Shown here piece by piece: positions 28,404 through 64,000 of a stretch of 64,000 nucleotides of DNA. The position numbers and the translations under genes were made by a program. Numbering within the stretch: position 1 is the first letter of the stretch; each line of letters begins with the position of its first letter. Source of the stretch: a virus (lineage: Duplodnaviria > Heunggongvirae > Uroviricota > Caudoviricetes). The notes under the pieces were generated by a model, which saw only the letters and a list, made by a program, of their open reading frames with translations, was not told where the DNA came from and ran no database searches. Where the stretch lies: the IMG/VR virus record IMGVR_UViG_3300010213_000001, positions 32,001-96,000 of that record; one strand, given 5' to 3'.

Positions 28404-28422
28404 TTTATAGGACTTTTATTTT
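28392..28422 (+). terminator. Terminator overlapping the stop codon
   Basis: AAAGTCCTATAA-T-TTATAGGACTTT followed by TATTTT. Confidence 0.65.
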
Positions 28423-28547
28423 ATTATTATATAATATAGTTTTAATGTAGTATCTTTATATACTATAAGTAAATACTAATATAATAATTTACATTATAAA
28501 ACTAAATTATTATAATAATATTATAATATATTTAATTATAAGATATA

Positions 28548-36400: not shown

Positions 36401-39353
36401 TAAATCTGGAGATATAGAAGAGGGTGTTAGAGTACTAAAGAATGGACTGAGTAACAGTGTCGCTTCTTATTTTAAGACACATATACAAAATGATCCTAAC
36501 AGTGGAGCTAGATTAATTGTTATAAATCCAGACCAAAAAGATAGTTCTGGAGAGGAGAAATTAAAAGAACAGATAAGAAAGCAGTTTGATCTACCAGCAA
36601 ATATGATATTAACAGCAACTGAAGCACAAGGTAAATCAATTGAACATGTTTATTTGTATACACCTGAGAGTATAGATATGGATTCTTCTACACTACTAAT
36701 GTTCTTAAAAGATCTCTTTGTTGGTATTAGTAGAGAGAAGAAGTCCGTAACATTATCATTGCCTAGTATAACTGGAGTTGATAGTGCTATAACTAATGGA
36801 GTGAGTTCTATTTCTGTTGCCAATAATACTTTAATTAATAAGTTTACATCATCTTTAGGTGAAGATGGTAAGATAAATCAAGACTTACTAAATAGACAAA
36901 TATCTACTGTGAATCTACTAGAACTTTATACAAATAATATAAATAATATTAGTGATGATTCTTCTACTGAAGAAGTTGATACTCCTCTAAAACCTAACAA
37001 ACAAACTACTGATCAAGGAGAACCAGCGTTGGCTATAGATGTCTCTAAAGACAAAGTATATAATATAGACGATGCTCCAGACATTAAGATAAGCAAGTTA
37101 GAAGAAGAGATAGCTACACTAGAAAATGCTTTAACTAAAGCAACTGAAGCTAATAATCAAGAAATAATAGATAGGATAACTCCTATATTAAACAGCTTAG
37201 TACAGGATAAGTCAGACATAGAACGTGCACTTGAGTTGGCTCAGGCAGCTTCTGCAGAAAGTGTCAAATTATCTGATAGGGTGGAGCTTGGTATCAAATT
37301 AGTATGGTATTCTATAGATAAAGAAGGAAATAATATATATAGTGATATTATAGTAGAAAATATAAATAGAAACAATAACAGAGTGACTATTAGAGTCGTG
37401 GATACCGATTCTACAGTAGAATTAAATCTATCAAGTTTAGATAATACTATATCCAATGTTCCCGTTTTCCAGTTACCTGGAGAAATGTTACAAGTACAAC
37501 AGACAGTTACTATTAATTCTTCTCAATCAGTTGTTGAACCTACTACTAGTAAACCAGACAAGATAGATAAAGTGCAGGAGAAAGATGATATAGTTATTGG
37601 AACTGAAGTTCAGGTTTACAACACAAAAACACAAACTTATAAATCTAGTCATGTTGTTGAAGTATCAGCAAATAGTATAACTATAAAATTTAATAGTGGT
37701 ACAATTGCTAGAGTAAAAAGGAACAGTTTAAACAACAAGATTGGAAGTATTCCTCAATATAGAATAATTAAAGATGTAGAAGATGAGCAGGACTTGAATA
37801 GTAAGATAACTAATAAATTAACTTTCTCTCCTCTAACAATTGCTGAAGATCAAGAAGTAAGCAAGATTGTAGAGAATTTTAAACTATTCTTAGAAGACTT
37901 GTTTAACCAGAACAATCAATTAATTAGTCAAGACTTATTCTCTGATCTTACAGCTCTAGTAGGTTCTTTTGTATCGACATTAGATACTAAACTAAATCAG
38001 GCTATATCAGATGGTATCATTTACATGATATCTAAAAATAATTATATAGTATTGAATGGTAAGAAGGTTAGATATAATAGAACTCAAGTAGTTAATGACT
38101 TTACAAAAGTAGCGTATGATGTAGTCAGAGAGTACAGACAAAAGTATATAGATAGTAATGAAAATGTTGAAGCTGACTCAATTGTTGAATTGTTAGATCA
38201 TATTATAGGATCGATAGGATCAGTTAAAATAGCATTATCTAATAATATTAAAGCTAAAATAGATTTATTTAATTCCAAATCTGTAAATGTGAGTAAGTCC
38301 ACTAGAACTGTAATATCAGAAGAAACATCAAAAGCTGAAGATAGAAATGAGCAGGAGTTTAAGGAAATATTAATGTTGAATGGAATTTTAACTCCAGCAA
38401 TAGAAAAACAAATAGATAATTTTAGTAAGTATGTCTTAGGTGTAGATAGTGTAAAATACACAAAGGCAGATATACAAAATATAGCAGATACATCTATAGA
38501 AAAGCAGGGAAATAAGACTATACTCAATATAATTATATCTACTAGAGATATAACAGATAAGAGTGCTATTATGCCTTTAATTGCTTATAAATTAACTAAT
38601 AGTATTCCAGCTTTAGTAGATGAAGATCTTATGAATTACATTCATTTTAGGGGAGTTGGTAGAGTACCTAATAGTGTATTTTATAGCGACTCCAAAGTCA
38701 ATTTTGCGTCTATGTTTTATCCAGTAGTTACTAAGTTTTTTAGTGCTGTTGAAGCAGACAAATTAAGATTAAATAGTGCTATTAATTTAGCTGCAAATAA
38801 CTTACCAAAAAATAAACAAGAGCAGTTTAAAAGATTAGTGAGTGAAGATGTATTCTCAGATAGGATTATTCGTATCTTGTCACAAGAGCCTATGACATCT
38901 AAAGAGAAATTAGAATATAATAAACTATTGTTTTCTATCTTAAAACAAATATATAAAGATCCTAGAATAGCTGACGTTGCTAGAGGTTTTAAGTTAATCA
39001 ATGAAAATGGAGAATCTATATCCTTATTAGGAGAAATAACTAGAGTCTCTATTGAGACGATAACTATGGGTAAGAAAGGAGTAATAGATAACTTACAAAG
39101 TATAATAAATACTATAACTGAATTAAGTGCATTAAGAATGGAACATGCTAATATACATAGTTCTGAAACAATAATTGTTGAAGAGCAAAACGAAACTACA
39201 GAAAATAAAATAGAGAATGAATTAGCTAATGATTTTGAATTAAATGAGTTAGTGATAAAGGAGGAGTCTATGATAGATTTAATCAATACTATATCTACAG
39301 CATTAGATACTGATATACCTTTAGATATTCAATTCTTTAAAAACTGTTTATAA
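30435..39353 (+). CDS. Giant ejection protein with N-terminal membrane-inserting segments and a superfamily-1 helicase/ATPase domain
   Basis: 2972 aa. Gly/Ala hydrophobic helices at ~31560-32295 and long coiled coils. Walker A GYAGVGKTT (~35679-35705), Walker B IIIDEA, LTGDEIQ, TATEAQGKSIEHV and FVGISR correspond to SF1 motifs I, II, III, V and VI. Confidence 0.75.
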   Translation: MPEPKKLNREIDFSKVIEAGMQSGSTLSPIQLAGLLDYEKTNFGSATTFKLNEDNLSQYTPEVKNKIKDLYTQTQAVYGAYKQAGAFPIKAPRFGKNKVMELFYPNMEYSKGIKYDAPDLEFYWNGSMVPSRNMTSQEIRDIAPFYLDTKANEIKSLDKTKLEQFSDGWSFSNIGQSFINDPLKAIKTGLGIELPNVNDSIADLGFSTNPKLAVANYGDIAKLNTEEGKAAAQMLALGIVNPRTEYKKKADDGAEYYLWKTLDETHDSFQEEVRSVWGPKTMYHNNYFSEGLEAANDFLMNSLDGANFIFNYAPKKIIGGLGSRYLFDGTFDKQIEKEYNAYNAWSSSRKSQASEEDAESWTSNPINFTKGIIDGAAQLALTLATGGLGKGLVWGMGKASASLSANNLLKLSARRAQNLVTVPATAYGYSYAASAANKEARQAGINPEAAMIMSGIAAAAIAGSERLTGGNWVKKLLGKDIAQGYGSKIAKELTTEVMRANRLNNTSLITSDVLNSEASKGAIKKVLGAAYDYISKDAETRTGALLQGFLKEGVQELTEDSINKLSQAGFNLVGDITKKVGLDWINDKERYKIETNNLFEDLLGSFVIGGIVGGGAGAMLHSKPKVDEQLENNRSYWLVDLALKGEKEQARFFEELEDMKKNELLGIADLSAEVDKDSKNGLVRKLLGNKATRKTSDLEIDDNEFNYNLFKAKAEFVFGETARVSKLLEDSIGEPIDRANKKTAGLISDILGLSQEPTSNEGMFSIKSLLPEYNTNVVTIKDSEGNLVGISQERYDEITQGKSIEEINKNFKILTPLERAQEEARILTTSLNQAIHSESIFVKSQLEKTNNRIAHLLQTKENNADSKLAAINPDNIISYNGNMKAIKREDSNEIDNTEAYFDKEVKLEFSEAQKKLRNLEEDKDIRKSINSIKDLEKQLEELEFRSKREPELREFLDKQKEDKLKEIEVAETQLHEQIEQKGLVSSAKIKDLVSLLRTKDTYNNYLTNNLTTRLNYFKTKSIINAAAFNKLGNLISKAAENGVSKRILSPYTKEEKDRRKRYYVNRIKSEEQAAKKLNEEQKLKSTELAKKITESKEGFTESIAEELIKYFEENPLAGRTQELSDLLIENVTDISAEISKLFQGISQYAVDEAFLIQLDGQTTVPGILNSLEKQALAYKEYNDTSEVIEAASTSFRLLSDLLNNLNNKNISSKLLEIKKALGTTEVFPLIQELITLVETEVENVEELLKKSKFDTDTNFPTPTIYEAYTEVDISNSIEEFIQDIIRSHSDNTIYKNIIEDFKSTSDNPKASRINFVNRFNNKLQGILKRDILGDVTQEKEEDLEKEFYLNDHSILIDNRNIAIPTEIENNLRSYLLDEWDEIDVNKLTENVKKLYEPLLSIVLDHYVDKVNGNTLPSSIFNEDSSIDRLLLDRLTSRVDEEGRLELEKISRVYQELVMYNASKVEGYTDMKLEDFSAFSRAVLSILTGEQVIEKVGLKLKSRLVQDTEYRAKYLDYYSKLLKEINSLLDEDDETNTLLDTLSNNIIDLETELGIKLNEDLPTEEGKSKEVDSAINVLLSDLKTIELQVSNRINKLPIGELNTLIRKVTEDYSAEAITNLYKTENGEIESPLMPRTKLSTEELEAKINFLQALYTNKLDKFYTALHDTVKLTNFNEDFISTFEQQQVTKGLYSLYSNNKRNAFHKELSAIINEANISKKSVFYNDQGIQRNVKSNKDRIRALSNMMMVRGYAGVGKTTFVIKEIMKILSQLEDYKGRKVRILVSAPGASQLETIGKSVAELQDFLKQNNIDNIEISLKNLDYIKSTENLSSLYDSIIIDEATLVSRQDTMHNITGSISLLDRLIEFGKPVILTGDEIQKSNGDFGSSPWTRGNPSAAFYIPRTTSLVNPMRTGKIDSFNLQKNLISSIVELSKLNEIYIRDGVDYVASNKDIIKLLGSKPIKVSKSNFANIAARILINTLYKPTNTRFSVKSGDIEEGVRVLKNGLSNSVASYFKTHIQNDPNSGARLIVINPDQKDSSGEEKLKEQIRKQFDLPANMILTATEAQGKSIEHVYLYTPESIDMDSSTLLMFLKDLFVGISREKKSVTLSLPSITGVDSAITNGVSSISVANNTLINKFTSSLGEDGKINQDLLNRQISTVNLLELYTNNINNISDDSSTEEVDTPLKPNKQTTDQGEPALAIDVSKDKVYNIDDAPDIKISKLEEEIATLENALTKATEANNQEIIDRITPILNSLVQDKSDIERALELAQAASAESVKLSDRVELGIKLVWYSIDKEGNNIYSDIIVENINRNNNRVTIRVVDTDSTVELNLSSLDNTISNVPVFQLPGEMLQVQQTVTINSSQSVVEPTTSKPDKIDKVQEKDDIVIGTEVQVYNTKTQTYKSSHVVEVSANSITIKFNSGTIARVKRNSLNNKIGSIPQYRIIKDVEDEQDLNSKITNKLTFSPLTIAEDQEVSKIVENFKLFLEDLFNQNNQLISQDLFSDLTALVGSFVSTLDTKLNQAISDGIIYMISKNNYIVLNGKKVRYNRTQVVNDFTKVAYDVVREYRQKYIDSNENVEADSIVELLDHIIGSIGSVKIALSNNIKAKIDLFNSKSVNVSKSTRTVISEETSKAEDRNEQEFKEILMLNGILTPAIEKQIDNFSKYVLGVDSVKYTKADIQNIADTSIEKQGNKTILNIIISTRDITDKSAIMPLIAYKLTNSIPALVDEDLMNYIHFRGVGRVPNSVFYSDSKVNFASMFYPVVTKFFSAVEADKLRLNSAINLAANNLPKNKQEQFKRLVSEDVFSDRIIRILSQEPMTSKEKLEYNKLLFSILKQIYKDPRIADVARGFKLINENGESISLLGEITRVSIETITMGKKGVIDNLQSIINTITELSALRMEHANIHSSETIIVEEQNETTENKIENELANDFELNELVIKEESMIDLINTISTALDTDIPLDIQFFKNCL

Positions 39354-39363
39354 TATAAATGAT

Positions 39364-42300
39364 ATGTTAAAAATTACTTCAATAATATGCTCGTTCATAA
39401 ATAGAGCAGCTGTTAAGTTAAATGCTGAATCATTAATAAAGTCCCTAATGATGTCGTATAGAGAAGATGTTAAATCTCTAATGGATATAGTATCTCTCAA
39501 TATAAAGATGGGCAGTATAATGCAAGAAGCTTTAGAGCAGAAAGATGAAAATGGTAATAAACCTAATCCAGATGCTATGTATTTGGGGGCGTTCATGGCT
39601 ATGAACAGTATTTACCCTCTTGTTCTTGCTGCTGAGACAAATCCAGCAGCATATGACGCATTAAATAAATTAATGGGCGGAGCTTTAGATTATTATCCAG
39701 AAGCTTTAAGTACGGAACTAAACTTTGCTAAGCAATATCTACAAGGGGATGAAAATGGTAGCGTAAAAGATAATATTTTATCCCAACGTAAGTCTTCTTT
39801 AGATATGTATGATTTTGTTCAGTTTATTACACCAGAATTACCTATTGAGTTAGCTACTGATACAGATGCAAATGATATTGATAATCCTATACTAGATAAT
39901 GACACAACAATAGATGATTACAATGAGACGGAGTTAAATAAGGCTAAAACTACTATAGAGCAATTTGCGGATCAGGTTAGTGATGCTAAAACTAATACAA
40001 CTATAGAAGAATTGCCCGAACTCCAAGCTGATGGAGACCCAGATATAGATGAAGATGATTTATCTCAAGATCAAGACAATGAAGATATATTTGATGATTT
40101 TGATATAGATGATGATGATAATGACACTAAGCCATTTACAAATGAAGAAGTTGAAGAGTTGGAATTAATAAGTAGATTAAAAGAAGTATTTGACAATGAA
40201 GAATTTCCAAGATTAAATAACTCTAATATATCTGACTTTTTTGAGTTTATAAAATTAAGTGATATTGCAGACAGAGAGGTGCTTAGTACAGACGTTAACT
40301 CATCTGAAGTATTATTGTTTGTAAATAATGGATTAAATAGAGAATACTCAATTATTATAAATAAAGACCTAAAGGGGAGTAAGTATATATATACTTATAC
40401 TCTGAATTCTGGACCTGATAATTATATTCCTATGTCAGGCAATTTAAGAGAGTTAAGTAATTTAATTGCTAAAAAGTACAAGTTTGGAAGATTAGGTAAG
40501 ATTAATCCTTCAGATATATATGATCTTGATAAAGACATTCCAGCTCGTAATGTTGTTAGAGACAATAATAATCAAGCTATAACTTATGCTAATACATTAC
40601 CTGTAGAATTACATAGTATAAGTCTCTTTTCACAAAATGCTCAAGTTACTAGGGATTATCTAAGATTAAAGAATTTAATATTTGGAGAGTTAATGTCCAA
40701 GTCATCTACAGATATAGTTCTAGATGAAGATACTTTAAGAAAGGTAGTAATGAAAGCATTCACAGGTATGGTAGGGTTGAATAATGCCAATAAATTAGCA
40801 GTATTAAATAACTATAGATTTAACCTGGTAATTGAAAAGGATACAGTATCTTATCCACAAGATAGAGTAGTAGCATCAACTATAAGATTTAAGGATAAAT
40901 CTGGAAGTACTACATACTATACACCAGAAAGATTAACAACATCAATACATATACAAGACGCTTCTGGAAATTATGTAGATTTAAGTAATATAGGAGTCAA
41001 CTTACCAAACATAATAAAATTAAGTAACTTAAGATTACCTAACTCCACAAGTGATTTTAGTCCTTATGCTGAAGAGTATTATAAGCTACAATCTGCTCTA
41101 AATACTAGATTAATTCAAGGAGATGGTCCTATTGTAGCAACAGGTTTGGTTATAGAAGCTAATAATAAAGCTGAGCAAGACCTACTTAATATCTATCAAC
41201 CTCCGCAGTATTACAATGGAGTTGGTAGTGAAGTAAATCAATATAGACTTCATATTAATGAAAGCTATAGAATAGGTAATACTGATGTTGAATTATCAAC
41301 TCAAGAGTTATTAGAGATAGGAAATAATCTTGTTATAATGAAATCTCTAGGTTATGATGTACATCTAACAAGTAGAGAGTTGTATGATATGCTTATGGAA
41401 GTTGAAGATGATTTTATAGAATCTACTACTTCAATAAATTCTATGAATAATAGGATGCTAACCATATTAAATAATATCGCTCAAGATAATCCAGCATTAC
41501 TAGCGAGTAAAGATAAATCATCAGTATTTTATATACTGAAGTCCATTAGAGATAATGAGAATGGAATAGCTTCAAGTGAACAGTTAGAAGAACTTTCAAA
41601 ATTTAGAGAATTACTAAAACAGCCTTTAACTTTTCCTCAATACTATCATTCTTTATTATTAAAGGAGTTAGGATTTTCAACAACAGAAAGTATTATTGCA
41701 CAACCTGGAGATTTTTCTGGAAATAGTGCTGTAGTATATAAATCTGAGAATACTGCTATACTATCTAAATCAGATAGATATAACAGTACGCCATCTATTC
41801 AATCTAAGAACTCTAATGCTTCTGTGGCTTTAACTTCTAGAAGTAAGATAACTCCATTAGATTTGATGCAAGAATCTTTAGAATCTCCTGAATCTAAGAA
41901 GTCTTTACTAGGAGTGACTCAAGCACCTTATTTCTATGCTCAAACTTTACAATATATCAAAGGATTAGAAGATAGGTTGAATAGGTTAGATACTGAGCCT
42001 ATAACTATAGGAACATACGTTAGGCATGAGAATGAGACATACATTGTTATACAAGACAATATGTCTGGAAACAGAGTACAGTTGTATAATCCAAAGATTG
42101 GAGTTAATTCTAAAATAGTTGTAGATAGATCATCTATATCATCTCTAAATAAGAAAGGTACTTTTGTACAATACAAAGGTAAAAACTATTTGGTAACTGA
42201 TAGTGATGTCATAATATCAACACTAACATATTCTCAAATATTTGAAAAGCCAAACGCTACAAGTAAGGCAATTATTGATGAGAAGTATAAGATAGTTGAG

Positions 42301-51300: not shown

Positions 51301-53313
51301 AACCAGTTAAATGGTAAAAGAGAACTTAATAACAATTTATCTCCACAGTTAATAAATCTTATAACTACTACTAGATTGGAAAATATGAAGTTAGAAGGTA
51401 GATTAACTGCTAAGACTTTAAATACTGAAGCTGAGAGACTATTAAGTGTGAATAAGTTTTCTACAGAGGAAATAAATTTCATAGCAGACTCTATATTAGA
51501 TAGTGTCTCTGTTAAAAAGTATATGATGGAGATAGTTAGATCTAATGCAGAAGCAAGTGCAGAATTTAATCAAGTTTGGGAACATGTTTCTAATCAAGAG
51601 AATCTTGATGAAATGACCATATCTAATCCAGTACTATTTAATAAGTTATTTAGTGATGTAGCTGCTAGAGTATCTAAAGGTATGGCACTTAGAGTAAATG
51701 GTAAGAAAGCTGTACAGATGCCAATTACTCAAATGAAGAAGGTTTATGAGTGGAATGGTAGATTACATACTAAATTAGATATATTTAATATACTAAAAGC
51801 AGCATCTCCAAACAAGTCTAATACAACTATATATAAACAAATAGACGATTTAATTCGAACTAGGACAATTAAAGAAAGAAGTGTCAGCTATGGTAATCCT
51901 AATCAAGATACGGATAAGATTACACATACAGAAGTAGAAGCAAGTAATCCATTTTATGTTAAGTACTCATTCTTGAAAGATATATCTTTGAGAGAGATGT
52001 TTGATATTTATGATAATAATAGAATGTTGAGATCTTTAGAGTCTAAAACTTATGAAGATATAAACACTGATTCTTTAGCTTTGGAAGAGTATCTTAACGA
52101 TTTAGTAGATGGAGGAGAAGCTAGTACATTAGCTAAAATATACAAATCTCCATTATTTAAGATGTTAAAAGCAGATGTTAATGACAAGATTCAACTATTA
52201 GAGAGATCTAAGAAAATAGATGAATACCTTAGAAAACAATTAATAAATAATCCTCAAGCTGTTGAGGAGGCTAGAGAGTTATATAAATCTATCTTAGAAG
52301 ATAAGTTGTCCGAGTACAATGATAGATTACAAGAGGAAGAGAATCCTGAAAATAGAGAATCAATTAAAGGTTATATTCAAACTCTAGAACAACAAATTAA
52401 AGATGCAGATACATTAGAAGATGCTAAACTTATAAGTTATCTTAATACAAGTGTTAAATTTAACAAGTCAAAATTAATAAAATTAACACAATATATGGAA
52501 TTCTTAAATCGAGTAGAGAAAGGAAGATTTAATACTAAAGATGGAAATATATCCAAGTTAAATAATGACTTTGTTAAACTAACTAAGAGAGCAAATAAAG
52601 CACTTTATGGAATAATGTCTCGTGTACCTAATACAGGGTTGAACTCTAACTCATTCTTTAAGATTGTTACATTCAATAATGAATATGGTAACTCTGTATT
52701 TATACCTGCTGAATGGTTGAATATATCAGGATCTGACCATGATGGGGATACATTACAGCTGTGGACATTTGATCCTTATGGTAGGAATAAATACTCAGAT
52801 TTAGCTCTAGAAAAAGCAGCTGACATCATGACTAAGTATGATAATACAGCTTCTATATTCTCTAAACTAGACTTATCACTAAAACCTATTCAAGATGAAG
52901 CTACTAAGAAATATAATGAGCCTGGTATGTATTTGAAGCCTTATGATGCGCACTCTTTCTTTACTGTAGTCTCACAGAATGCTGTAGGTTCCACAGTTGT
53001 AGGTTCTTCTGCCTTACTAGGTAAGAATTATACTTATGCCAACCAAGTTATAAAGAGTATGATTTCTTATATTTCTAAGCAAGAAGATTTAAATAACGTT
53101 AATAGATTAGAAGTTTCTAAAGGAGAAGAGATAGAAGTTCAACCAGATATTTCAAATGTTAATGAAAGTTTAGAAGAAATAGACAATGAAATTATTCAAG
53201 TATTGTTTGAAAGTGTTGATACTCAAGAGGAGTTAATGGAGTTATTAGATGCTATGGAATTGTCAACAGAAGAAAAAGGAGAGATAATCCGTAAGTATTG
53301 TATGAATAACTAA
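39364..53313 (+). CDS. Giant virion RNA polymerase-containing protein (two-barrel, crAss-type) with zincin-like domain
   Basis: 4649 aa. R-x-P (SRVP, 52621) is followed by GSDHDGD (Asp triad at 52735-52749). Upstream DMVKR and WDG motifs fit the second barrel. HEILH at 44311-44325. Confidence 0.8.
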   Translation: MLKITSIICSFINRAAVKLNAESLIKSLMMSYREDVKSLMDIVSLNIKMGSIMQEALEQKDENGNKPNPDAMYLGAFMAMNSIYPLVLAAETNPAAYDALNKLMGGALDYYPEALSTELNFAKQYLQGDENGSVKDNILSQRKSSLDMYDFVQFITPELPIELATDTDANDIDNPILDNDTTIDDYNETELNKAKTTIEQFADQVSDAKTNTTIEELPELQADGDPDIDEDDLSQDQDNEDIFDDFDIDDDDNDTKPFTNEEVEELELISRLKEVFDNEEFPRLNNSNISDFFEFIKLSDIADREVLSTDVNSSEVLLFVNNGLNREYSIIINKDLKGSKYIYTYTLNSGPDNYIPMSGNLRELSNLIAKKYKFGRLGKINPSDIYDLDKDIPARNVVRDNNNQAITYANTLPVELHSISLFSQNAQVTRDYLRLKNLIFGELMSKSSTDIVLDEDTLRKVVMKAFTGMVGLNNANKLAVLNNYRFNLVIEKDTVSYPQDRVVASTIRFKDKSGSTTYYTPERLTTSIHIQDASGNYVDLSNIGVNLPNIIKLSNLRLPNSTSDFSPYAEEYYKLQSALNTRLIQGDGPIVATGLVIEANNKAEQDLLNIYQPPQYYNGVGSEVNQYRLHINESYRIGNTDVELSTQELLEIGNNLVIMKSLGYDVHLTSRELYDMLMEVEDDFIESTTSINSMNNRMLTILNNIAQDNPALLASKDKSSVFYILKSIRDNENGIASSEQLEELSKFRELLKQPLTFPQYYHSLLLKELGFSTTESIIAQPGDFSGNSAVVYKSENTAILSKSDRYNSTPSIQSKNSNASVALTSRSKITPLDLMQESLESPESKKSLLGVTQAPYFYAQTLQYIKGLEDRLNRLDTEPITIGTYVRHENETYIVIQDNMSGNRVQLYNPKIGVNSKIVVDRSSISSLNKKGTFVQYKGKNYLVTDSDVIISTLTYSQIFEKPNATSKAIIDEKYKIVENEKKQQASKSQETLDLRAAISKAKASLFDPSNPYGLGYSNIANIGNMTKEEVETLINGNKDVGIQGIRDKILNEFAFTLRQLQETANLKGVSSLQDRVYKYNLRTTFRSREIVDISNEYAKQSNLPDTITSDITINNQDGTTDNYNNVNIEYITLDVAGEYPSEYNDIYPDKNIKLIVLNNPSPNSKKDLGGSFLIPLSSFDNQDRLIKHPKNIVTVTYTVNGQSITEDFVKIRKHWNDSKLFYSWYSVDGKYKYIGTLLPREDGGFSVATLSSMKTLEFIKYGEAKYEEFKQLETLQEQLDVINENSTRLFGSYSDLKTNINGEIIAEKNLEKESNKISSSIIVNSPNMINSPSFGDVDTSEPTTANVAKKLQSGGIRNKDILAIYDSDLYTGETMEYAIEATKELTVNIVYNPIVNYKSSEKSGISGKEVPPQIRDTTQQANIYVQNDIFPMFPHMVINLSLNQSNLYNNNSVVANRIDASGVLSGELAQIAEPINIDDFQFPIEEPISVSTEDVNEQVTDVVDTVEQDETSDVEFEEQLGDIDFLLDEDDEFLISDKDISNDNTGADDIEDSMDDIFGRLETTLADYTMSEDDILTLYNQILGINAIVIDQVSYNKLPDSKKRDNFYIIKSNNKFRLSDGLTYLGFASKGLNALHTSNDLYSFTLAKHEILHTILNEYMPATRRQKILQEVRILLKADKDRSQEYLDVDNLTNRQLEEYLVLLKESTDLGNDWRKINENSIVRFIDKTIVGKFINRILGSNNAITDFLSWIVSTYKKTINFNQSELDKFIIDLSYNRFRRAEGSYDSYNQETGQKEEPNIRGRLDSEVEAKSNQAKRLNSAFGYPHELNEETKVLNGSRRFSRYKQQIASLIVEYQFVTASIDLYKQRRSLGEIIDRVQSKYISDVIKQIDESPLLRQVLEKKDNKSDVENIFIQDYLTLKKVDRNKTAVSYKELQNISNRIQKFLYSQFDSDQFTDKNNKINKAYYTLAVLANKNEILSYMYEDIEFDAWNDTVEEDDGSIEIGSSWQAKEATHLTTLDTLSKKVKNHIYNTSYFYEDSFGNKVYELVDPKTVQDILTSVFENAQQLSRKNNNDAISALNEAWRLYLQDLGTSSPDSYSYYEARALYDKVFKIDDDFIPISPNSTYKSSYKYSYAQVAFNHESITSVNPNIAESTYKYLTKWTTKFNNAINTKNINDIKSLMTELTAVNAKNNQSRLDAIAKIFKDLNLEKEYNKAMLEYNNFKQGDNIEKLKALNKSITKLTSIVSNYTTVNQSILQLHQDAYNSVVSMFASNWKVSFSKVGVTKNIVKTHTDVGSKKDSGFNLSVKTGIINTVYNSRLEIHKENIVKQIISHTPDKSKVNTGNYLSINTLQDPRSKYKISHNKSSITFEFPYNFKGEDNVIKIVLNESDLITRGEFKDITKDKLKRIYEQLTSVPYQGYKVDIIPNVVASFYQTIGFQLDRRAVRTLQRVEGIENTNPKEGVLRLIHHMLQSYAVIQAAYEEENGVFYSRKQPDTNRGEVRGTSLLSKFVSRKDDVDINATTDSSGTRQSTLTEEGEDENSSQINEDTPYMFTPSRDYDDVLTRLIEYNKRFKQAVQKDSVYFGENRYGLNVYTTPLYEHLQELTTIEKDNIFDQLTTLKARIENENRQLISSAEGLAEIDRLYKEARANLLSEYKFMSSPIYTNRLIDMYTVNGKLEKNLIAKNWSIFNYINNSSSGKGKSFLNFTIKELQRQAVNDFFLYPGQSGNKYGAYNSARHNEYKQTLEAQANRGQLPIVELDSKVFYDYEKGDESMFADDKGNISNNLVVSKYKLGADAESKLFNVYSSSNSYMYNTLKETETVLGYESNSDLGIGIDTTYLNKLMDISIDVNAKLAEVGNNPLKVFLEFKRLVNLYKANSENVEYYDEVRQITTNITGFEVMAINNIDSVIEQIKNKLSKASNPTLIDFLNKTLQEYTSVRNNPEQLSLIAGEYSKIYKEAYLNRLKESYLMANQYMINDGFGDPAKKEQNAKILNGLRQTYIRLDKFLEKPANTLDGFDNRYLDAIYKRLGDIGNNMDSAAGTSSEVKDFIRYEPLPSETLSSAISRNLSRTAQLLNDQLAVMSKANKNKLMGQLTLHRHYDKTSSIFSINGLTGFTLSEAIQRLPKDQREKSAETIKSFVAIERAISKKNLTIDDIIKVANNNDTIHDEVLSAIANDIKAGNPNIQGPDINNTKEFIQLYNNIKANLEANGITSVKSTKAMTIGQLLYEDVTKSFSEYIKEIKEEMVRFGLQAVQEEVEITGIISSKYDSGVMSYGPKRNIDSNNRYDKAFIDNFPTYFELDPNTGSYTLVEHRIKPIEYTINGKKLYNSAGKKFIYDDKNSNSGRKYNDQVPTVNPGSFLFFSNTYQGSESREERLSLFKQLPIDDQLDNINPIFLDYFLTNKVNGFYLGQYIDGDIYRYKGKTTTAKLIDMVKRIGTNTTPGTKPTFREVISLNNKQKTINNNGLSTHHNVANIPDEVYDIMNQEYKYFRDVSALTYDDDNQALKSIVENMIYHGEISATQAATLTVGSLDVLKIEDSSSKYNRGIYVREGARYGIDTSIEGNPTIILLEEGSIRGRSGELLDSFEAWDGVTFMSNLAGLLIINSYGNKEGIDMTQQGLKMINNNLDAKTQNGVSMKSLQVKFTSKFIFNSSESVKTLVKEGYRSGILNEDFIKDHTYKKGTNAIINGEEVVLNEDLSIQVPDGEWNLYGEFVPPQLNLITDKDGKFSWNIPSRKKTLYDVYWENGGWNPNQSGVFETVYFDGSTTAVDSEQHSTLKISKSDFEVYKAYIKNREDNAFMVKDKSNNTLLTLDELLGKIKNNDSNYSDLLNRNINTIQDLIKAINVADRFVYMDSVMLFNPASGTKKGTRDTNPNFKGNYSDEFTNIHTQSLENFSYIITINKKDKDGQDVALSTQFTYLLGMENNVFEAQDVYNVIASLSKEQRKDFEGKIKKIRNELLKSNSLEKIKETLNQLNGKRELNNNLSPQLINLITTTRLENMKLEGRLTAKTLNTEAERLLSVNKFSTEEINFIADSILDSVSVKKYMMEIVRSNAEASAEFNQVWEHVSNQENLDEMTISNPVLFNKLFSDVAARVSKGMALRVNGKKAVQMPITQMKKVYEWNGRLHTKLDIFNILKAASPNKSNTTIYKQIDDLIRTRTIKERSVSYGNPNQDTDKITHTEVEASNPFYVKYSFLKDISLREMFDIYDNNRMLRSLESKTYEDINTDSLALEEYLNDLVDGGEASTLAKIYKSPLFKMLKADVNDKIQLLERSKKIDEYLRKQLINNPQAVEEARELYKSILEDKLSEYNDRLQEEENPENRESIKGYIQTLEQQIKDADTLEDAKLISYLNTSVKFNKSKLIKLTQYMEFLNRVEKGRFNTKDGNISKLNNDFVKLTKRANKALYGIMSRVPNTGLNSNSFFKIVTFNNEYGNSVFIPAEWLNISGSDHDGDTLQLWTFDPYGRNKYSDLALEKAADIMTKYDNTASIFSKLDLSLKPIQDEATKKYNEPGMYLKPYDAHSFFTVVSQNAVGSTVVGSSALLGKNYTYANQVIKSMISYISKQEDLNNVNRLEVSKGEEIEVQPDISNVNESLEEIDNEIIQVLFESVDTQEELMELLDAMELSTEEKGEIIRKYCMNN

Positions 53314-53327
53314 TAATTTAAATAATT

Positions 53328-53365
53328 TACTAGTACCTATATATAATACAAAATAGGTACTAGTA
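53328..53365 (+). repeat. 13-bp inverted repeat with 12-nt loop between two giant genes
   Basis: TACTAGTACCTAT-ATATAATACAAA-ATAGGTACTAGTA. Confidence 0.75.
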
Positions 53366-53401
53366 CTTTAATAAATAAAAACTTAATAAATAAATAAAGA
53401 T

Positions 53402-56400: not shown

Positions 56401-59400
56401 ACAAGAAGAACAATTGATATCTATTTATAATGAACTTAATATATTTGATAAAGAAGGAATTACAAATCAAGTAGAACCAACTAAAAAAGTAGATGTATTA
56501 GCTAAACTAAAAGCTTTGACTGATAAGAAGAAGGCTCTTAAGGAAACACTCTATCCAGAACAAGACAAACAGGATGGTGCTCCTAAACAAATTAAGAATT
56601 TATCAACACTTGTTAATCATAGTGGAGGAGCTGTAGGATCCGACACAGAGTGGGATACTATTGGCAGTGATTTTGGTATGGTTACTAACAGACATTATTA
56701 TTTTGAAGAGAGGACTCCTCGAGGTAATGTAGAGATATCAGAAATTGATTCTGAAGAAGGTAAGATAGAAGCTGCAAAAGCAGCTAAGAGAAACTTTGGT
56801 TATAAGTTTAAAACTATGAAAGATAGTAGACTTATTAGGAATTGGAGTCAAGTAAAATATTCTGATGCTGTTTTTGCTATTGGTAAAATAGTAGATAAAG
56901 GAGAGAAGTTATTCCCCAACCAATCTAACGATACAAGAACAGCATTGGTTCCTTCAGTAACAGGTGGAACAGGTTATGCTGTAGGAATGGCTATTAATCA
57001 AAACAAACCTGTATATGTATTTAATCAAGAAAAAAGTGAATCTTCAAACAAATTTATTTCTGCAAAAGGAAAGATGACATTTTCTTATGGAAATAATAAA
57101 AGAGATGATGTAAAGTCTGATACTACTTTTGAAGCCATTCAAAACGGAGAAAGAACTGCTACTACAAGATATGAGTCTGATGGTCATATAAATTATTGGA
57201 AAAATCTTAAAATAGGGGATATTGTAGAATGGGAAGGAGCTAATGGTGAAAAACAATTAGTCGAAATAACCAAACCTTTACATAAATTAACAGGAAGCGG
57301 TAAAACCGCAGAAGAATGGAGCAAGCTGGAAGGTTGGTCAGTTGATTATTTTAACAGTAAAGTCAAACCAAAATTAAACGATGCTTGGCAAATAGAGTAT
57401 AAATCTGTTAGTGATAAAAAAGGTTATGATGTTGGTTGGTACAGATGGGACTATGCTTCTAAAGATTTCACAAGAACAGAAACTCCAATATTAACTAAAA
57501 ATTTTGCAGGAATTGGAACTAGAAATATCAATAATGCAGGGAAGCAAGCAATTAGAGATGTTTATAGTAAAACTACAGAGTCTATTAATGGAAATGCAGC
57601 ATCTAGCGTTAGCTTACAGTTAAATAAGTTGGATTTATCAAATGCTTCAACAGATTTGCTTGAATTAAATTATAGAATTAAGCAATTAGCCAGAAAGTAT
57701 GACTATAATTATAATGATAGAACAATACAAAAAATATGGAATCATATTAAAACTAACTACTACAAGAGATTTGCTATAAACCCAGAGTTGGGTATAGTAA
57801 CAGATAGCAATTTGTCAAAGCAGGATATATTAAATAGTAAAGAATTACTAGTAGCTGCAGTAGCTAAGTTATTAGAAAGTAATTTAGATCAGAGTACTAA
57901 GCAAGTATATATAAATCAAATTAGACAACAGATTATACAGGCAACTTCTAATTATGATCCCAACTTTGAATTATCTGCCACTCAGGAAAACATAATATAT
58001 GTCCTAGATTCTATAGGAGTAGTTAATTATAATTATAATATAGAGAACACTACTACAATTCCTGATATACCAGATATATTACAAGCCGAAATAAATGAAT
58101 GGTATAATAGAGAATTATCAAATGAGGAGATATTTAAGTATAGAGAAGCGCTAGAACCTAAGATAGGCATACCATATCTTATAGAAAATACACAGTCTAA
58201 TTACGCATATGAAATAGAGCAAGCTAAGTTTGTAGCGGGAGACGATGATAGTAGAGGCAATAAAGTTAATAAATGGATTGAATCTTTAATTCAATCAGCA
58301 GTAGATAATGCTAAATATTTAGCTTTGGGAGCTCTTCAATTAAGTTTGAGTAACGCTGATATACAGTCAGCTATTACATTCTTAGGTATTAGTAAAGAAG
58401 CTATTATACGATTACTGACAAGTAAGCAATTTTCAGAGTTTTTTAAGGAGCATGCTTTATACGATGATATTATGGAACTGAAGGGTACATCTTGGGAAAC
58501 ATCATTATATAGATATGCTAGAAAATATAATCTAGGTATTGATAGAGAGAATACTTTGGGAGATTCCATAAATTATATAAATGCTGCAAATACCAATGGA
58601 GTAGTAAATAAAAATTTAGTTAATAGAGAGTATGTGTATCATATGATGAATATTCTAATATCATATTCTAAAGAGTATAGTAGTTTGAATGATTCATTAA
58701 AAGCAACCTACCCAATTAAAGGTAGACCTACTCAACAAGAGACCCAAATAAGAACTATATTGGAAGGACTGGGATTAAAAGATATGGGGCTAGAAGCTCT
58801 AGAAGATGTATTAGATGGTTTAGAGAAGCACATAAATCAAGGAAACTCAGTATATAGTTCAAGATATTTCAAAAAAGCTATGGCTTCTAGTGGAAATGGG
58901 TTATTACCTAAAGGTATAGTAGCTTTATCATTTCCTCACGTTAGAGAAATGTTAAGGTCACACCTCCAATTTCATAGCATTAAACAAATGAACCATCTAT
59001 TGCATAGTCCAGTTATAAAAGAGTTTATTGGAGAATTACAAAGCCAATTAGATACTGTTCAAGTAAATAGAACAAATAGTGGTAATAAAGTTTGGAACGC
59101 TATGTATAATGCAATAAGTAATATATTTTTAAGAGAGTCTTATACTAAAGAGTCTGATGTATTTGCTGATATCCTAGACAAGGAAGATGGTATGTTTAGA
59201 CAAATTGAATTGGATTCTTTGGCAACTCCTGACAGTATAACAAACAATCAAGAACACTTTCAATTGTTTAAACCTAAGGAAACTGAAGAGTTTCTTAGTC
59301 ACGCTGCCAGTGTTGTAAGAGAAATAAAGAAGAAGTACCCTAATAACCCAAGATATAGATTTATATATTCACTTGATTTAGAAGGGGATACTATTAAGCT

Positions 59401-60991
59401 TAGAGGTTCTGAACAAATGATGAATGATGAAAGATTAGTTGCAGAGTATAAAGCACAATTTGAGTTGTTACCTGACAAGCTTAAGGACATGTTATTTAAG
59501 TACTTGTTATCTCATAGATCTTATGGGCTAAATTACAGTGTTGACAGTTGGTTTGGGTTCATGAACTACAAAATGTTTAAAAACTTTAATAAATTCTTAT
59601 TTAGAGCTGAAACTGTTCCTGGAGCTTTGCTGAAGCCAGAATATTTAATGAGACAAATATCTAACTTTGTTATGCAGCATCCTGAGCTAGTTAGACAATT
59701 TCCAAAGACTAGATTTTGGAACGGAGATCAAAATGTAAATACCATATTAAATAATACTGATATGTCTTACTCGTCTGCTGTAATGAGATTACCAGACAAG
59801 TTACCTGCTTTCACAATGGTTGAGGCTGGTCATTTAGAAACTGCATATGAAAGTCCTACTATTAACAAAGCAAAAACTAAACTACAATATCTATTTGATA
59901 TGGAAGTAGAGGGAGTAGAATCATTTAATAGTTTGTTTAAGAAATCTCTTAAGACTAAGAAGACCTTACTCAATAGAGTGAGTGATGCTCATAGTAAAAT
60001 TGTTGAAGAACTTGATAAACTTGAAGATAATGAATTCAAAAAAGCAGCACTAGGATCAGCATTTGATGTGAATGATAATATTAGTTGGTTGTCAAGCTTT
60101 ATTGAATATAAAGAGTATGGTGTATCCCCTGACCTATTCTCCACACTTAGCACATTCTATGATAATATAGATGGTAGCTTGTCTAAAGATATTGTAGACT
60201 TATATTTATCAACAGGAGTAAAGTATGTAAAATCTATTAACGATAATATACAGCAGACTAAAGATGAGTTAAGAAGTATTAAACAAAAGCTGAATAATAA
60301 TGGAGCTGTAGACATAACTTATCAAGGTAAAACTCAGACTTATGATAGTTGGTATAGAGAACTTCAACTTGATATTATGACTGAAGAGCAGATTATTCAA
60401 GATGAGCAGTTATCACAAACTTTAAATGATTTAGAACTATTACTAGATGATAGTATTATACAACTAAATAGTAGAAAGATTTCACTAGAAAATCAATTAA
60501 GTTCCAATATAGAAGATAGAAATAACTTATTCAAATATACTCCACAGACATTATATCTACCACAACCTCACTTTTATACATTAACTAAGTATAACGATTC
60601 TAAGGGCAATGCATATAAGAAACCTATAGTAGCGTTGTATATGGCTACTCCTTCTGTGTTAGAGCATGAGTATAAAGGCGATGTGCCATATGATCCAAAT
60701 GATTTTCCTCTTGTATATAGAAGAGTGTACAATTATAATGCTGATAGTAATATTAACCCATATTTTGTTACAGTTAATCTATTTAGTAATCAACTAAAAG
60801 GAGCTATGTTTAATAGTAGGAATAGTGGCAAAGACTTTATAGATGTTGGATGGAAATTAAATAGAAGAAACCAAGGTTCTATGTATCTAGATCAGATGTT
60901 ATCATCTTTAAATGATGATGCTGCCTACTTGAAATCTTTAATGGAAAGTGATAATAGAATTGATGATTTACATTGTCCACCTAATAAATAA
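53402..60991 (+). CDS. Giant polyvalent virion protein: PWC-motif domain, zincin-like HExxH, SLOG-like domain with nested ASCH-like domain, and probable C-terminal RNAP segment
   Basis: 2529 aa. N-terminal CPNKN-x-x-EWK-x-LV, TPWCTG...AEVRG, HELAH (56081-56095), HSGGAVGSD...GGTGYAV...KPVYVF, GERTATTR, and SAVDNAK (58298-58315). Confidence 0.7.
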   Translation: MAKLGFKCPNKNLQEWKDLVEIQGEQTAHYLWNKFDAIPEQYYKEIYNITSTITPQQSTSLVEATELVMKSISSRINVPLAEVYDKNRIITTSKNIDRESIEYFISTLIGGNVSDLEGDILYQDGKEYSIPNKYTKNLGLTSEDYFLSKVLDKEKDLTTGARVIKDGVKLSIRDSILSKIEEKYNSLVNNLEQSPYVIKEMSDSYIQFAARVAENNGDFSKAQQIRNFTPQQKKDNAELIRNNQIKDLQPWINYLNSRPDYPIEFKYLILSDILKYNVNEVNLKSNYVRLNKRNNTSVNSFESFNARGIASVFEKPTSSNMFLVDYTLELANKAATEAPTEKQFSRTNKGIWYKFINGDAKELSSLVRDTPWCTGSESTAASQLSVGDFYVFVPFNNEENEKIAIKFEGETIAEVRGTLNGQELKDSSTPIVDDFVTTNFPNQTNALNKIAYLKLRGRFIENEELWRDKGLVRELYELSQYNDAYEDDPFLVENENYIFDVVKEILEEVAYNYSPEIERIYSTRVEEYKIRENEDRVYFYLEDGTIVKIDITNKNLYINQRNRNRNNYIESFIYSDKAKRVNLDIDKNTYLGVNLRKGITNLKDIANEATDVDIKYWHNNAVPKIAKEFIVEGQYYEGLKASFRGGKLESSVGKAAHIKILLKVNPDLLNTFKLNNHYKHTIDNDVVNNLSIDALLKIISPKLQGDLEENIIYLDASTLDASTFFKIWDALSIEEKDNITIQNMSPSLYEDISLGIDNINLYYTNNYILTEGQWVGNTYVQEYNTIPLIKNGKVELQDSVYKDIDEEYTKIPRTYTFKNYQLVSAVYDENSDRYSKYFEYFNTKNLSDLEYYEEKYGSLYQKDKDLIRGVFTRLATDKSLILLHKDANITTPLHELAHLWETVLTSDEKSTILNWTKQSTWDRNTSERFAKGFEQYVYEGVKTGDSKVDSLFEKFKTWFTSIIDNFNKYFKGSDLNKDIKAIYNKMLISGNKLNENFSSLQEEQLISIYNELNIFDKEGITNQVEPTKKVDVLAKLKALTDKKKALKETLYPEQDKQDGAPKQIKNLSTLVNHSGGAVGSDTEWDTIGSDFGMVTNRHYYFEERTPRGNVEISEIDSEEGKIEAAKAAKRNFGYKFKTMKDSRLIRNWSQVKYSDAVFAIGKIVDKGEKLFPNQSNDTRTALVPSVTGGTGYAVGMAINQNKPVYVFNQEKSESSNKFISAKGKMTFSYGNNKRDDVKSDTTFEAIQNGERTATTRYESDGHINYWKNLKIGDIVEWEGANGEKQLVEITKPLHKLTGSGKTAEEWSKLEGWSVDYFNSKVKPKLNDAWQIEYKSVSDKKGYDVGWYRWDYASKDFTRTETPILTKNFAGIGTRNINNAGKQAIRDVYSKTTESINGNAASSVSLQLNKLDLSNASTDLLELNYRIKQLARKYDYNYNDRTIQKIWNHIKTNYYKRFAINPELGIVTDSNLSKQDILNSKELLVAAVAKLLESNLDQSTKQVYINQIRQQIIQATSNYDPNFELSATQENIIYVLDSIGVVNYNYNIENTTTIPDIPDILQAEINEWYNRELSNEEIFKYREALEPKIGIPYLIENTQSNYAYEIEQAKFVAGDDDSRGNKVNKWIESLIQSAVDNAKYLALGALQLSLSNADIQSAITFLGISKEAIIRLLTSKQFSEFFKEHALYDDIMELKGTSWETSLYRYARKYNLGIDRENTLGDSINYINAANTNGVVNKNLVNREYVYHMMNILISYSKEYSSLNDSLKATYPIKGRPTQQETQIRTILEGLGLKDMGLEALEDVLDGLEKHINQGNSVYSSRYFKKAMASSGNGLLPKGIVALSFPHVREMLRSHLQFHSIKQMNHLLHSPVIKEFIGELQSQLDTVQVNRTNSGNKVWNAMYNAISNIFLRESYTKESDVFADILDKEDGMFRQIELDSLATPDSITNNQEHFQLFKPKETEEFLSHAASVVREIKKKYPNNPRYRFIYSLDLEGDTIKLRGSEQMMNDERLVAEYKAQFELLPDKLKDMLFKYLLSHRSYGLNYSVDSWFGFMNYKMFKNFNKFLFRAETVPGALLKPEYLMRQISNFVMQHPELVRQFPKTRFWNGDQNVNTILNNTDMSYSSAVMRLPDKLPAFTMVEAGHLETAYESPTINKAKTKLQYLFDMEVEGVESFNSLFKKSLKTKKTLLNRVSDAHSKIVEELDKLEDNEFKKAALGSAFDVNDNISWLSSFIEYKEYGVSPDLFSTLSTFYDNIDGSLSKDIVDLYLSTGVKYVKSINDNIQQTKDELRSIKQKLNNNGAVDITYQGKTQTYDSWYRELQLDIMTEEQIIQDEQLSQTLNDLELLLDDSIIQLNSRKISLENQLSSNIEDRNNLFKYTPQTLYLPQPHFYTLTKYNDSKGNAYKKPIVALYMATPSVLEHEYKGDVPYDPNDFPLVYRRVYNYNADSNINPYFVTVNLFSNQLKGAMFNSRNSGKDFIDVGWKLNRRNQGSMYLDQMLSSLNDDAAYLKSLMESDNRIDDLHCPPNK

Positions 60992-61008
60992 ATTAAATAA
61001 TAAAACAA

Positions 61009-64000
61009 ATGAAATGTAGATTTGTACCAAAAGCTAAAGATAATTCTGGAGCTTCTATAAGTTACTTAGAACTAAACTCTATATTTAATATAGACAATAG
61101 TGAACTTAAAGAAAATAAGATAAAAGAATTATATAAGTTAGTTAGTAGTGATGTATTTCTTAATGAGTATAAGAAATATAATCCAGAACTTATACAAGGT
61201 GAGATAAGTCCATTTAACTTAGTTAAGTATATAAATAAAGCTTCGACACAAGAGAAATTTCCAGCTATAAGTGCTCTTTTATATGATGTAAGTGAAGGGA
61301 GTGATATAAATACCACATCATTATATACTATAGAATCTTTATCTAACTTATTAGGGATAAACTATAAACTAGATTATTCTACAGACTCACAAGCAATAGC
61401 ATACTATGAAAACGGAACTACTGTATTTAATGTGAAGAATCTTAATAACAGAGAAGATGCTGATAATATAATCTATCATGAGTTTACCCACCCAATAATA
61501 GATCATATACAGAGTAATGATTCTAGATTGTTTGATTTCTTTGTAAAAGAAGCTAAGAATATTCTTAGTAGTCAGGAAATGTCCGAAATAAGAAAGTTAT
61601 ATGATAAAGAAGATGCGCTAACACTATCTAAAGAGATAATTGTTAGAGCAGTAGATAAATTAAGAAACTCAACAGAACAAGACAAACCTAACAATCTACT
61701 GCAAACTCTTAAGAAGTACATCAAGTATGTACTTTCTAACTTATTTTCTAATATTGCTGGACCAACTCACTTTAATAAGTATCAAATTGATACTTTACAA
61801 GATGTAGCTCAGTTTATGAGACAATTACCAAACTCTCTAACTAATTTTAAGCTAGACATTGATACTAGTCTTAAATCTGCAGTACGTCAGAAGTATATTG
61901 GTTCCCAAGAAGAAGCTCCTGATGCTATAAAGAAAATGGGGTTGGAAGACGTAATAAATAGACTGTTTGATTATAAGTCTAATGGAACAACTAAGGTTAT
62001 TCAGGGGATAGAAAACTTTAGTATTGATAATTCTGAAGCTAGTAACTTCTTTTCAATAGACTATACTAGATCTACTTTAAAAGTAACGTATCCAAACGGA
62101 GAAACTAAATCAATTAGATTCAAAGACATATCACAACTTCGAACTATTATAGAAAGTGAAAAAAGACTATTAATTAAAGCTGTTGAAGCTTATGCGGAGA
62201 AATACTCCAGTGATCTATCAAGAATAATGAATATAAGAATGCCAGATCCAGGAGATAAAAGAGCTATAGAAAACTATGAGAAAGAGTTACAGAATATAAA
62301 TACAAGATATACTATTGATATGATGGGCTCTTTAATATATGATATTAGTAATAATAAGCCTGATGAAGTATATAACTACGCTACATTTAAGCAACTTTTC
62401 CCAACTCTAGCTATGCCTAATTTTAACGATGATAACTTAATTGTTACTGTTAGAAATGTAAAAGATAAAAATGGTAATACTATTAATAAAGTATATAACT
62501 TAATATCTCCTTACGTTGGATTTAATGATAGAACAAAAGAATATGAGTCATTTGCTAAAAAAATATACAAGAGTGACAGCATAGCAAGACAAAATGGTTT
62601 TACTATTAGTGATAATATAAAAGGTATTAAATCTATTAATGCTGCGATGCTAGCTATGCATATAGCTATTAATGATAATACTGCTAAATTTGAATCAGTT
62701 AAAACATTTAATATATTCGATCCAAGAACAATAGAAGAAATCAATCTAGAGGAAGCTGTATCTAATATACTTTCATTAGAGAGTAATCTACCAGACTTTA
62801 TATCCTTTATATCATTAAATAATGAGTATAAAGAACTTAAACCACTAGAAGAGCAAATCAAAAGTTTAGCAGAGAATGTTTCTAAAATGAAATCAGATAG
62901 GAGAAATAGTGTATTTAAGCAATCGTATATTCAATTACTATTCTCTCACGATCTTGGAAGAAAGAATTCACAAGGTGTAAGTTACAACTTATTTCAGAAC
63001 TTTAATACTTCAGATATAGAGAATGATCAACCATTAAGAGATAGACTTAAACGATCTATTGAAAAGAGATTGAGAACAATCGTAAAAAATTATGAGCACA
63101 GTATTGATGGTCTTACAGGAAAACGTAAGTTTGAATCTTTAAATACTGATATAGGTAAGGAGTATTTACTATTATCTTTAGCATTAATGGAACTAGATGG
63201 TAATAGGTATGGAGTAGATTTAACTCAACTCAATAGAGATATGACAATGGATAATAGTCTTGAGTCTTGGATTAAAGGGCAGGGGGACTACTTTGATTCT
63301 TTTACTAACTTTGTTATGAGCAATGTTAGAAAGATTATGGCTAGAGTTAAAGAGAAATTTATAATCTACCAAAGAGAGAAAAATAAATTCTTTGAGGACT
63401 ATTTTAAAGAACTAAAAGAATTCAATTCATTTAAGAACATAGCCTTTAACTATAAAGAAGATCTTTATACTAATTTATATGAGTATAAAATGGTTAGAGT
63501 AATGGATAAAGTACCAATTAAGAATAAAGACAATAGAGATAAAATTATTACTAATAATGTATTTCGTAAAGATGCTAATGGTGAATTTATTAAAAAAAGA
63601 GTAAAAACTGGCAGACTAAAGGATCCAACTACTTCAGGGTTAACTAAGTTTGAAAAACAGTTGATATTAAAAACTGCTAAGACTATAAGAGATGCAGTAA
63701 AAGAATTAGTTAGATCTAAGTATGATAATGGAGAATTACCTAGCGCTTTCCAATCTAAAGGAAATTTTGAAGAGGCTTTCGCAGACTGGGAATTACAAAG
63801 TATGGGAGCTACATTTAAGGGCAATACAAATGATGAAACTGTTTGGGGTAATTATCTAATGTTACCAGCTGTAAAGAAGGATGTTATAGCCTCTATACTA
63901 TCTGGAAATTTTAGAGAAGCTATAGATAACTTTGCTGAGCTAGAGTTTAATATGAATAATATGAGTCTAGATAAAGATTCGAAGCACGATTCTAAAAGTT
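61009..64000 (+). CDS. Fourth giant virion protein with zincin-like HExxH motif, 3'-truncated by the window
   Basis: ATG at 61009 (MKCRFVPKAK...) with an A-rich leader. The frame is open to the window end and is missing from the ORF track because no stop is reached. YHEFTH at 61474-61491. Confidence 0.75.
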   Translation, partial: MKCRFVPKAKDNSGASISYLELNSIFNIDNSELKENKIKELYKLVSSDVFLNEYKKYNPELIQGEISPFNLVKYINKASTQEKFPAISALLYDVSEGSDINTTSLYTIESLSNLLGINYKLDYSTDSQAIAYYENGTTVFNVKNLNNREDADNIIYHEFTHPIIDHIQSNDSRLFDFFVKEAKNILSSQEMSEIRKLYDKEDALTLSKEIIVRAVDKLRNSTEQDKPNNLLQTLKKYIKYVLSNLFSNIAGPTHFNKYQIDTLQDVAQFMRQLPNSLTNFKLDIDTSLKSAVRQKYIGSQEEAPDAIKKMGLEDVINRLFDYKSNGTTKVIQGIENFSIDNSEASNFFSIDYTRSTLKVTYPNGETKSIRFKDISQLRTIIESEKRLLIKAVEAYAEKYSSDLSRIMNIRMPDPGDKRAIENYEKELQNINTRYTIDMMGSLIYDISNNKPDEVYNYATFKQLFPTLAMPNFNDDNLIVTVRNVKDKNGNTINKVYNLISPYVGFNDRTKEYESFAKKIYKSDSIARQNGFTISDNIKGIKSINAAMLAMHIAINDNTAKFESVKTFNIFDPRTIEEINLEEAVSNILSLESNLPDFISFISLNNEYKELKPLEEQIKSLAENVSKMKSDRRNSVFKQSYIQLLFSHDLGRKNSQGVSYNLFQNFNTSDIENDQPLRDRLKRSIEKRLRTIVKNYEHSIDGLTGKRKFESLNTDIGKEYLLLSLALMELDGNRYGVDLTQLNRDMTMDNSLESWIKGQGDYFDSFTNFVMSNVRKIMARVKEKFIIYQREKNKFFEDYFKELKEFNSFKNIAFNYKEDLYTNLYEYKMVRVMDKVPIKNKDNRDKIITNNVFRKDANGEFIKKRVKTGRLKDPTTSGLTKFEKQLILKTAKTIRDAVKELVRSKYDNGELPSAFQSKGNFEEAFADWELQSMGATFKGNTNDETVWGNYLMLPAVKKDVIASILSGNFREAIDNFAELEFNMNNMSLDKDSKHDSKS

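Follow-up and report, generated by a model that had tools for sequence, protein, structure and literature searches.

Why should four giant proteins encoded side by side in a tailed phage be almost free of cysteine (Cys) and carry nearly all of the Cys that they do have at the ends facing one another? The question is raised by a stretch of 64,000 nucleotides (the window) covering positions 32,001 to 96,000 of the IMG/VR record IMGVR_UViG_3300010213_000001, a virus of the Caudoviricetes. Sequence comparison identifies the four giants, P1 to P4, as a crassvirus cargo block, which consists of a probable gp47-like protein, a virion RNA polymerase (here in two parts), and a gp49-like protein. Crassviruses are the most abundant phages of the human gut. 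As judged from related phages and one analogous system, the facing Cys residues probably form disulfides between the chains. Such head-to-tail pairing is strongly supported by sequence comparison and by the solved case of cyanopodophage A4, in which cryo-electron microscopy reveals that the C-terminal helix of gp27 enters a cleft of gp26 and is fixed there by a disulfide between Cys1715 and Cys5 (PMC12002296). The A4 precedent is an analogy for crassviruses.

Cysteine placement in the four giants

P1 (30435..39353, 2972 residues), P2 (39364..53313, 4649 residues), P3 (53402..60991, 2529 residues), and P4 (61009..64000, continuing past the window to genome position 97673, 1554 residues) are open reading frames (ORFs) on the plus strand, as are the other genes and domains of the window described below. 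Over their combined 11,704 residues, the 1.0% Cys content of the genome (723 of 72,077) would predict 117 Cys; P1 to P4 contain 7, and 6 of the 7 lie at three pairs of facing protein ends. The only Cys of P1 is C2971 (codon at 39345). P2 has C9 (39388) and C4646 (53299), P3 has C8 (53423), C373 (54518), and C2525 (60974), and P4 has only C3 (61015), since reading it to the end of the gene beyond the window adds no further Cys and hence no C-terminal one, which fits the end of a chain. A recount of the codons returned identical positions. The original prediction, made from the letters of the window, had counted about seven Cys in more than 10,000 residues, with six at junctions and none at the N terminus of the first giant, and all of this is reproduced. 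Its sole internal Cys is likewise found, as C373 of P3, but the “PWC domain” to which it was assigned corresponds to no Pfam family at that site. Under uniform placement, the chance that six of seven Cys would occupy all six facing end segments of 12 residues, one per segment, is about 6e-15. Among the other ORFs of the genome with at least 100 codons, Cys occurs within the first 12 residues in 23 of 238 and within the last 12 in 28 of 238. Genetic code tables 4 and 15 gave coding no better than that of table 11.

The start of P2 deserves comment. The database gene call for this protein (P0060) begins at Met40 and drops Cys9. An ortholog, P0061, has Cys6 near its N terminus and aligns over P2 residues 7-91 (expectation value [E] 2e-4), and the 117 extra bases upstream of Met40 are coding-like in their guanine-plus-cytosine fraction (0.28 vs 0.30), both of which support a start at 39364.

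Conservation across related phages

Seventeen records were picked by hand from tblastn hits (3 and 106 records) to span families, namely, crAss001, DAC15, phi14:2, IAS, cr108_1, cr116_1, crAss002, LMMB, cr127_1, cr4_1, cr55_1, cr109_1, cr118_1, MT835470, MT835492, phi17:2, and Lbo-JY46. The giants were ordered by homology and position as gp47, gp50, and gp49, and a Cys within 12 residues of an end was counted as terminal. Both facing Cys were present at 28 of the 32 ORF breaks. A terminal Cys occurred at none of the 34 outer ends and, in the pair of cargo genes upstream, at 2 of 68 ends; the internal rate was 92 Cys in 105,718 residues. The conservation of terminal Cys across crassvirus giants, on which the original prediction depended, is borne out. 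For crAss002, an in-frame ATG 32 codons past the annotated start was used, and the annotated start gives 27 of 32; the start of this gene (gp33, L006:16243-16339) is probably annotated 32 codons too early, with the downstream ATG placing a Cys at position 3. A 119-residue Cys-free gene between two members was left out for phi17:2. The middle member of that phage (L005:12091-13644) is only 517 residues long, has no polymerase motif, and resembles a bare linker with a Cys at each end.

The four breaks without a pair have features of their own. In two of them a LAGLIDADG endonuclease occupies the gap at the catalytic motif, with no Rfam intron at the gathering score; a third contains a group I intron (RF00028); and the fourth falls in a run of N, a sequencing fault. 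RNA splicing would close the intron-type breaks, so that no pair would be needed there. In addition, no Cys pair was found in the estimated fusion zone of any of eight fused proteins; these zones were placed by extrapolation and span a few hundred residues each. BLAST recovers both parts in seven of the eight and only the gp49 part in Lbo-JY46. The original prediction had the partners follow gene order. This does not hold, because crAss001, DAC15, IAS, and cr116_1 encode the head protein on the other strand, which indicates that pairing follows protein identity rather than gene adjacency. The facing Cys predicted to pair are gp47 C2339-gp50 C5 and gp50 C2404-gp49 C5 in crAss001 and, along gp67-gp66-gp65, C1797-C3 and C2179-C3 in phi14:2. 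Terminal Cys lie no more than about 10 residues from the ends, with N-terminal ones at positions 3-7, and within 6 residues of them a second Cys was found in 0 of 84 cases and a His in 1 of 84.

Searches with P3 gave a similar picture. Of 58 homologs, most of them retrieved by way of passenger domains, 47 carry Cys at the C terminus and 33 at the N terminus, compared with 0.8% expected per end, and their internal Cys rate is 0.064%. A search with P3 residues 1-90 retrieved 101 proteins, and 96 of the 98 new ones examined carry a Cys in the first 12 residues, a count that is partly circular because the query itself has Cys. Underlying these matches is an N-terminal module of about 45 residues (53414..53551 in P3; C-P-N...W-K-x-L-V...G...A...L-W), identified by homology search, which is a candidate docking cassette. 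It stands at the front of last members, of whole polymerases, and, in P3, of half a polymerase, and a profile found it at no internal position in the giants searched. Among the 33 module-bearing proteins of at least 1000 residues, a C-terminal Cys is absent from all 22 gp49-like proteins and present in all 7 polymerases; of the other four, two have both Cys, one has only the first, and one is an unrelated repeat protein.

The split polymerase and its surroundings

The assignment of the block rests on matches of differing strength. The N-terminal region of P1 is weakly similar to head giants from cr4_1 and MT835470 (BLASTP E 1e-6 and 1e-5, respectively), and the head-protein profile gave no match to P1. 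Profiles matched P2 as the first polymerase part (E 8e-13), P3 as the second (E 6e-9), and P4 as the gp49-like last member (E 6e-20). The catalytic DxDGD motif, located by profile and BLAST at 52735-52749, stands about 190 residues before the end of P2, and a bridge-helix-like stretch at about 52933-53034 follows and scores weakly (E 0.077 here and 0.0047 for the ortholog). Near residue 245, P2 also has an acidic segment resembling the catalytic motif; it was rejected because the profile places the motif at residue 4458. P3 bears the downstream polymerase part, including, at 58259-58381 (E 2e-7), a motif found in the trigger loop of phi14:2 gp66 (residues 1598-1636), and about 1,400 residues, mobile passenger domains among them, precede this part. 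The polymerase core is thus divided between P2 and P3 rather than held in a single polypeptide, and, by the sequence matches, the bridge helix probably lies before the cut and the trigger loop after it. No sequence match to P2 was found among solved structures.

This break also bears a Cys pair, and the stretch that it interrupts is continuous in other proteins. Both polymerase motifs occur in one chain, 166-355 residues apart, in 12 proteins, with 2 Cys in the 2,850 residues concerned; the pattern used was strict and missed the second motif in 33 further proteins. Orthologs keep the split with exactly two Cys each, at the ends: P0061 of P2 (C6, C4966) and P0002 (C5, C3995) and P0062 (C4, C2317) of P3. 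No neighboring DNA of close relatives was found in viral contigs with capsid and P2-end queries or in metagenome contigs with P0061 as the query. The P2-P3 gap is 88 nucleotides long, and the remaining two junction gaps are 10 and 17 nucleotides. It holds a 13-bp perfect inverted repeat (53328..53365, no strand assigned; -18 kcal/mol, z -4.1). Promoter-like sites are as frequent there as chance predicts, and the scan rule detected no terminator. An Rfam scan of 24000-64000, this gap included, gave no match up to E 1, which argues against an intron or RNA element between P2 and P3. The pattern also yields a rule for annotation: a Cys pair at a break marks a real protein boundary, breaks that lacked one were intron-type gaps or errors in all four cases here, and gene starts that miss a terminal Cys are suspect.

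Several further observations concern the composition of the block and the genome around it. The catalytic motif reads DHDGD here, with Gly at the fourth place as in cellular polymerases. Ile stands at that place in gp66, which is described as locked in an inactive shape (bioRxiv 10.1101/2020.03.07.982082). The passenger domains of P3 (55949-57661; DprA-like and others, by sequence matches) share up to 85% identity with segments of giants that are otherwise distant, and they match N4-like virion polymerases as well; on such matches, the cargo block seems to exchange domains. A domain search located an SF1 helicase/AAA domain within P1 (residues 1743-2106; 35661-36752), whereas the P2 ortholog P0061 is itself listed with AAA domains. 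Upstream of P1, three genes of 604, 520, and 623 residues (24117..30419) have no Cys, lie outside the Cys chain, and, by position only, occupy the place of gp45/gp46-type cargo. The gp45-like proteins of relatives show internal Cys pairs 8-9 residues apart (C390/C398 in L002:4988-7516; C211/C219 and C273/C281 in L003:5177-7675; C369/C378 in L004:22984-24246). A crassvirus-type major capsid protein (5161..6549; PF23898, E 3e-20; phrog_11589) is 24-28% identical to its three nearest records by tblastn. The window has no tRNA genes. The genome, at 244.7 kb (244,700 bases), far exceeds the 83-145 kb of named relatives and also the range of 145-192 kb reported for the largest gut family.

The proposed chain and known ejection systems

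Phage assembly takes place in the reducing cytoplasm. Because of this, the ends of P1 to P4, which would be virion cargo like their homologs, would at first dock noncovalently, and their thiols would oxidize to interchain disulfides later, after lysis. Each disulfide would replace the peptide bond of the fused forms, fixing stoichiometry and order, and Cys-free bodies would avert stray cross-links in the periplasm. Tied together in this way, P1-P2-P3-P4 may leave through the tail as a single thread with a computed mass of 1.33 MDa, to be severed by host cytoplasmic reductants after entry; here the tie would also hold the two halves of the split polymerase together. Bonding together with co-ejection of the four giants as one chain, for which the sequence pattern and the A4 analogy argue, is given a probability of roughly 0.55. 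A fuller version, slightly short of an even chance and offered tentatively, is a virtual polyprotein, in which a portable, Cys-tipped docking cassette stands at every true break between cargo genes and makes the peptide bond a reducible one. All 11,704 residues, with their two-piece polymerase, would be pulled as one thread in fixed order and freed by host reductants, and the block would thus be free to split, fuse, and gain passenger domains.

The biology of crAss001 provides a setting for such a chain. Homologs of P1 to P4 were identified in its virion by mass spectrometry, its virions carry inter-subunit disulfides elsewhere, and reduced and nonreduced virion samples have been described; its cargo is expected to be partly unfolded to traverse a channel of <50 Å, gp45 from N to C terminus, with packing and mutual contacts determining the order of the cargo (PMC10172136). 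Other points weigh against the threaded chain. An S-S bond between cargo proteins has been demonstrated in no crassvirus, gp47, gp49, and gp50 are unresolved in the crAss001 map (PMC10172136), and thiols might not oxidize in an anoxic habitat. Purified gp66 transcribes single-stranded DNA in vitro (bioRxiv 10.1101/2020.03.07.982082). T7 gp15 and gp16 and N4 gp50-52 are Cys-free proteins that are ejected untied, and the A4 disulfide is described by its authors as stabilizing the packed structure (PMC12002296). A tblastn search with A4 gp26 returned 20 records, all cyanophages and no crassvirus, gp27 not having been used as a query. In addition, fused cr4_1 has one lone Cys at its estimated fusion point (cr55_1 has none), some relatives have up to 9 internal Cys, and the records are related, so that the 32 breaks, which fall at at least three different places, are not independent.

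The main rival, itself rather unlikely, holds that the disulfides exist and only staple the packed core or the assembled polymerase complex, with no thread that sets the order. The description of the A4 bond, the crAss001 tail, which is stiffened by disulfides (PMC10172136), and the untied ejection of T7 and N4 are all in its favor. Staples, however, could be placed at any point of a contact surface, whereas the Cys actually lie within about 10 residues of the ends, their order equals that of the fused polyprotein, and the outer ends have none.

A different chemistry is improbable, be it a metal ion shared between oligomer junctions or a thioester or ligation that yields a true polyprotein. 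Sequence alone cannot tell thiol chemistries apart, and the reducing cytoplasm, as the site of assembly, would permit a metal bridge. Against this, terminal Cys almost never have a second Cys or a His close by, ligation needs a Cys at the free end rather than at positions 3-7, and the one solved case is a disulfide (PMC12002296). The original prediction that each C-terminal Cys bonds to the next N-terminal one, by disulfide or shared metal, thus keeps its first form, backed by the breaks with pairs and by A4, and its second becomes less likely.

Still less probable is a stand-alone signal at each terminal Cys (a packaging tag, modification site, degron, or homodimer link) that involves no pairing with the next protein. 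T7 gp14 (L024:3729-4319) has a lone Cys directly after its start Met, and the small conserved N-terminal module could bind a scaffold. Head proteins and last members are both cargo, yet the former lack the N-terminal and the latter the C-terminal Cys (0 of 34 outer ends; 22 of 22 module-bearing last members), and both Cys of a pair appear and vanish together with gene breaks. Chance or miscalled starts, which the Met40 call for P2 and the downstream ATG of crAss002 might suggest, are refuted for practical purposes by the uniform-model value, the P0061 alignment across Cys9, the 27 of 32 breaks still paired with the annotated crAss002 start, the 17-record tally, the 58 P3 homologs, and the 33 module proteins.

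How several megadaltons of crassvirus cargo are packed in the right ratio and ejected in order is an open question (PMC10172136). The chain of P1 to P4, if true, would make sense of the variation among families, some having the block fused and others having it divided at differing positions, and the pattern pinpoints exact residues that can be tested in cultured crAss001 and phi14:2. The original prediction knew of no such system. One link had in fact been published for A4, and no account of terminal Cys in crassvirus giants was found in the literature searched, which included the available parts of bioRxiv 10.1101/2020.03.07.982082, PMC10172136, PMC13434306, PMC7886860, and PMC10136315, with most subscription papers and some supplements lying outside the search. 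What is new here is a multilink, order-wide pattern that reaches into an enzyme; the type of bond was already published for A4.

The A4 (Anabaena phage A-4L) genome has the same arrangement of adjacent giant ejection genes with a lone C-terminal and then a lone N-terminal Cys (only C1715 in the 1717 residues of gp27 and only C5 in the 1114 residues of gp26), an arrangement seen three times in the window, and Pf-WMP3 and Pf-WMP4 retain the A4-type pair. In three cyanopodophages, the sole Cys of the peptidase ejection protein form a CxxC about 20 residues from the end (L021:25321-28497, L022:1271-4294, L023:1548-4589). A4 has one link between two proteins in a T7-like 42-kb phage, and its bond was seen by cryo-electron microscopy; here three links are predicted among four proteins, one of them inside an RNA polymerase. 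Ejection proteins of the Schitoviridae (N4 gp50-52, DEV gp71-73) share the Cys depletion, which for ejected giants has been attributed to passage through the periplasm (PMC11445570). N4 gp50-52, however, have no terminal Cys, and their polymerase is unrelated and single-chain, unlike the one here. The closest counterparts are crAss001 gp47-gp50-gp49, phi14:2 gp67-gp66-gp65, and the fused forms, polyprotein fusion of the crassvirus cargo block having been recorded before (bioRxiv 10.1101/2020.03.07.982082). They have the same order, homologous parts, and the same Cys signature, and the crAss001 block comprises 6,102 residues with a one-chain polymerase, compared with 11,704 residues and a two-protein polymerase in the phage described here.

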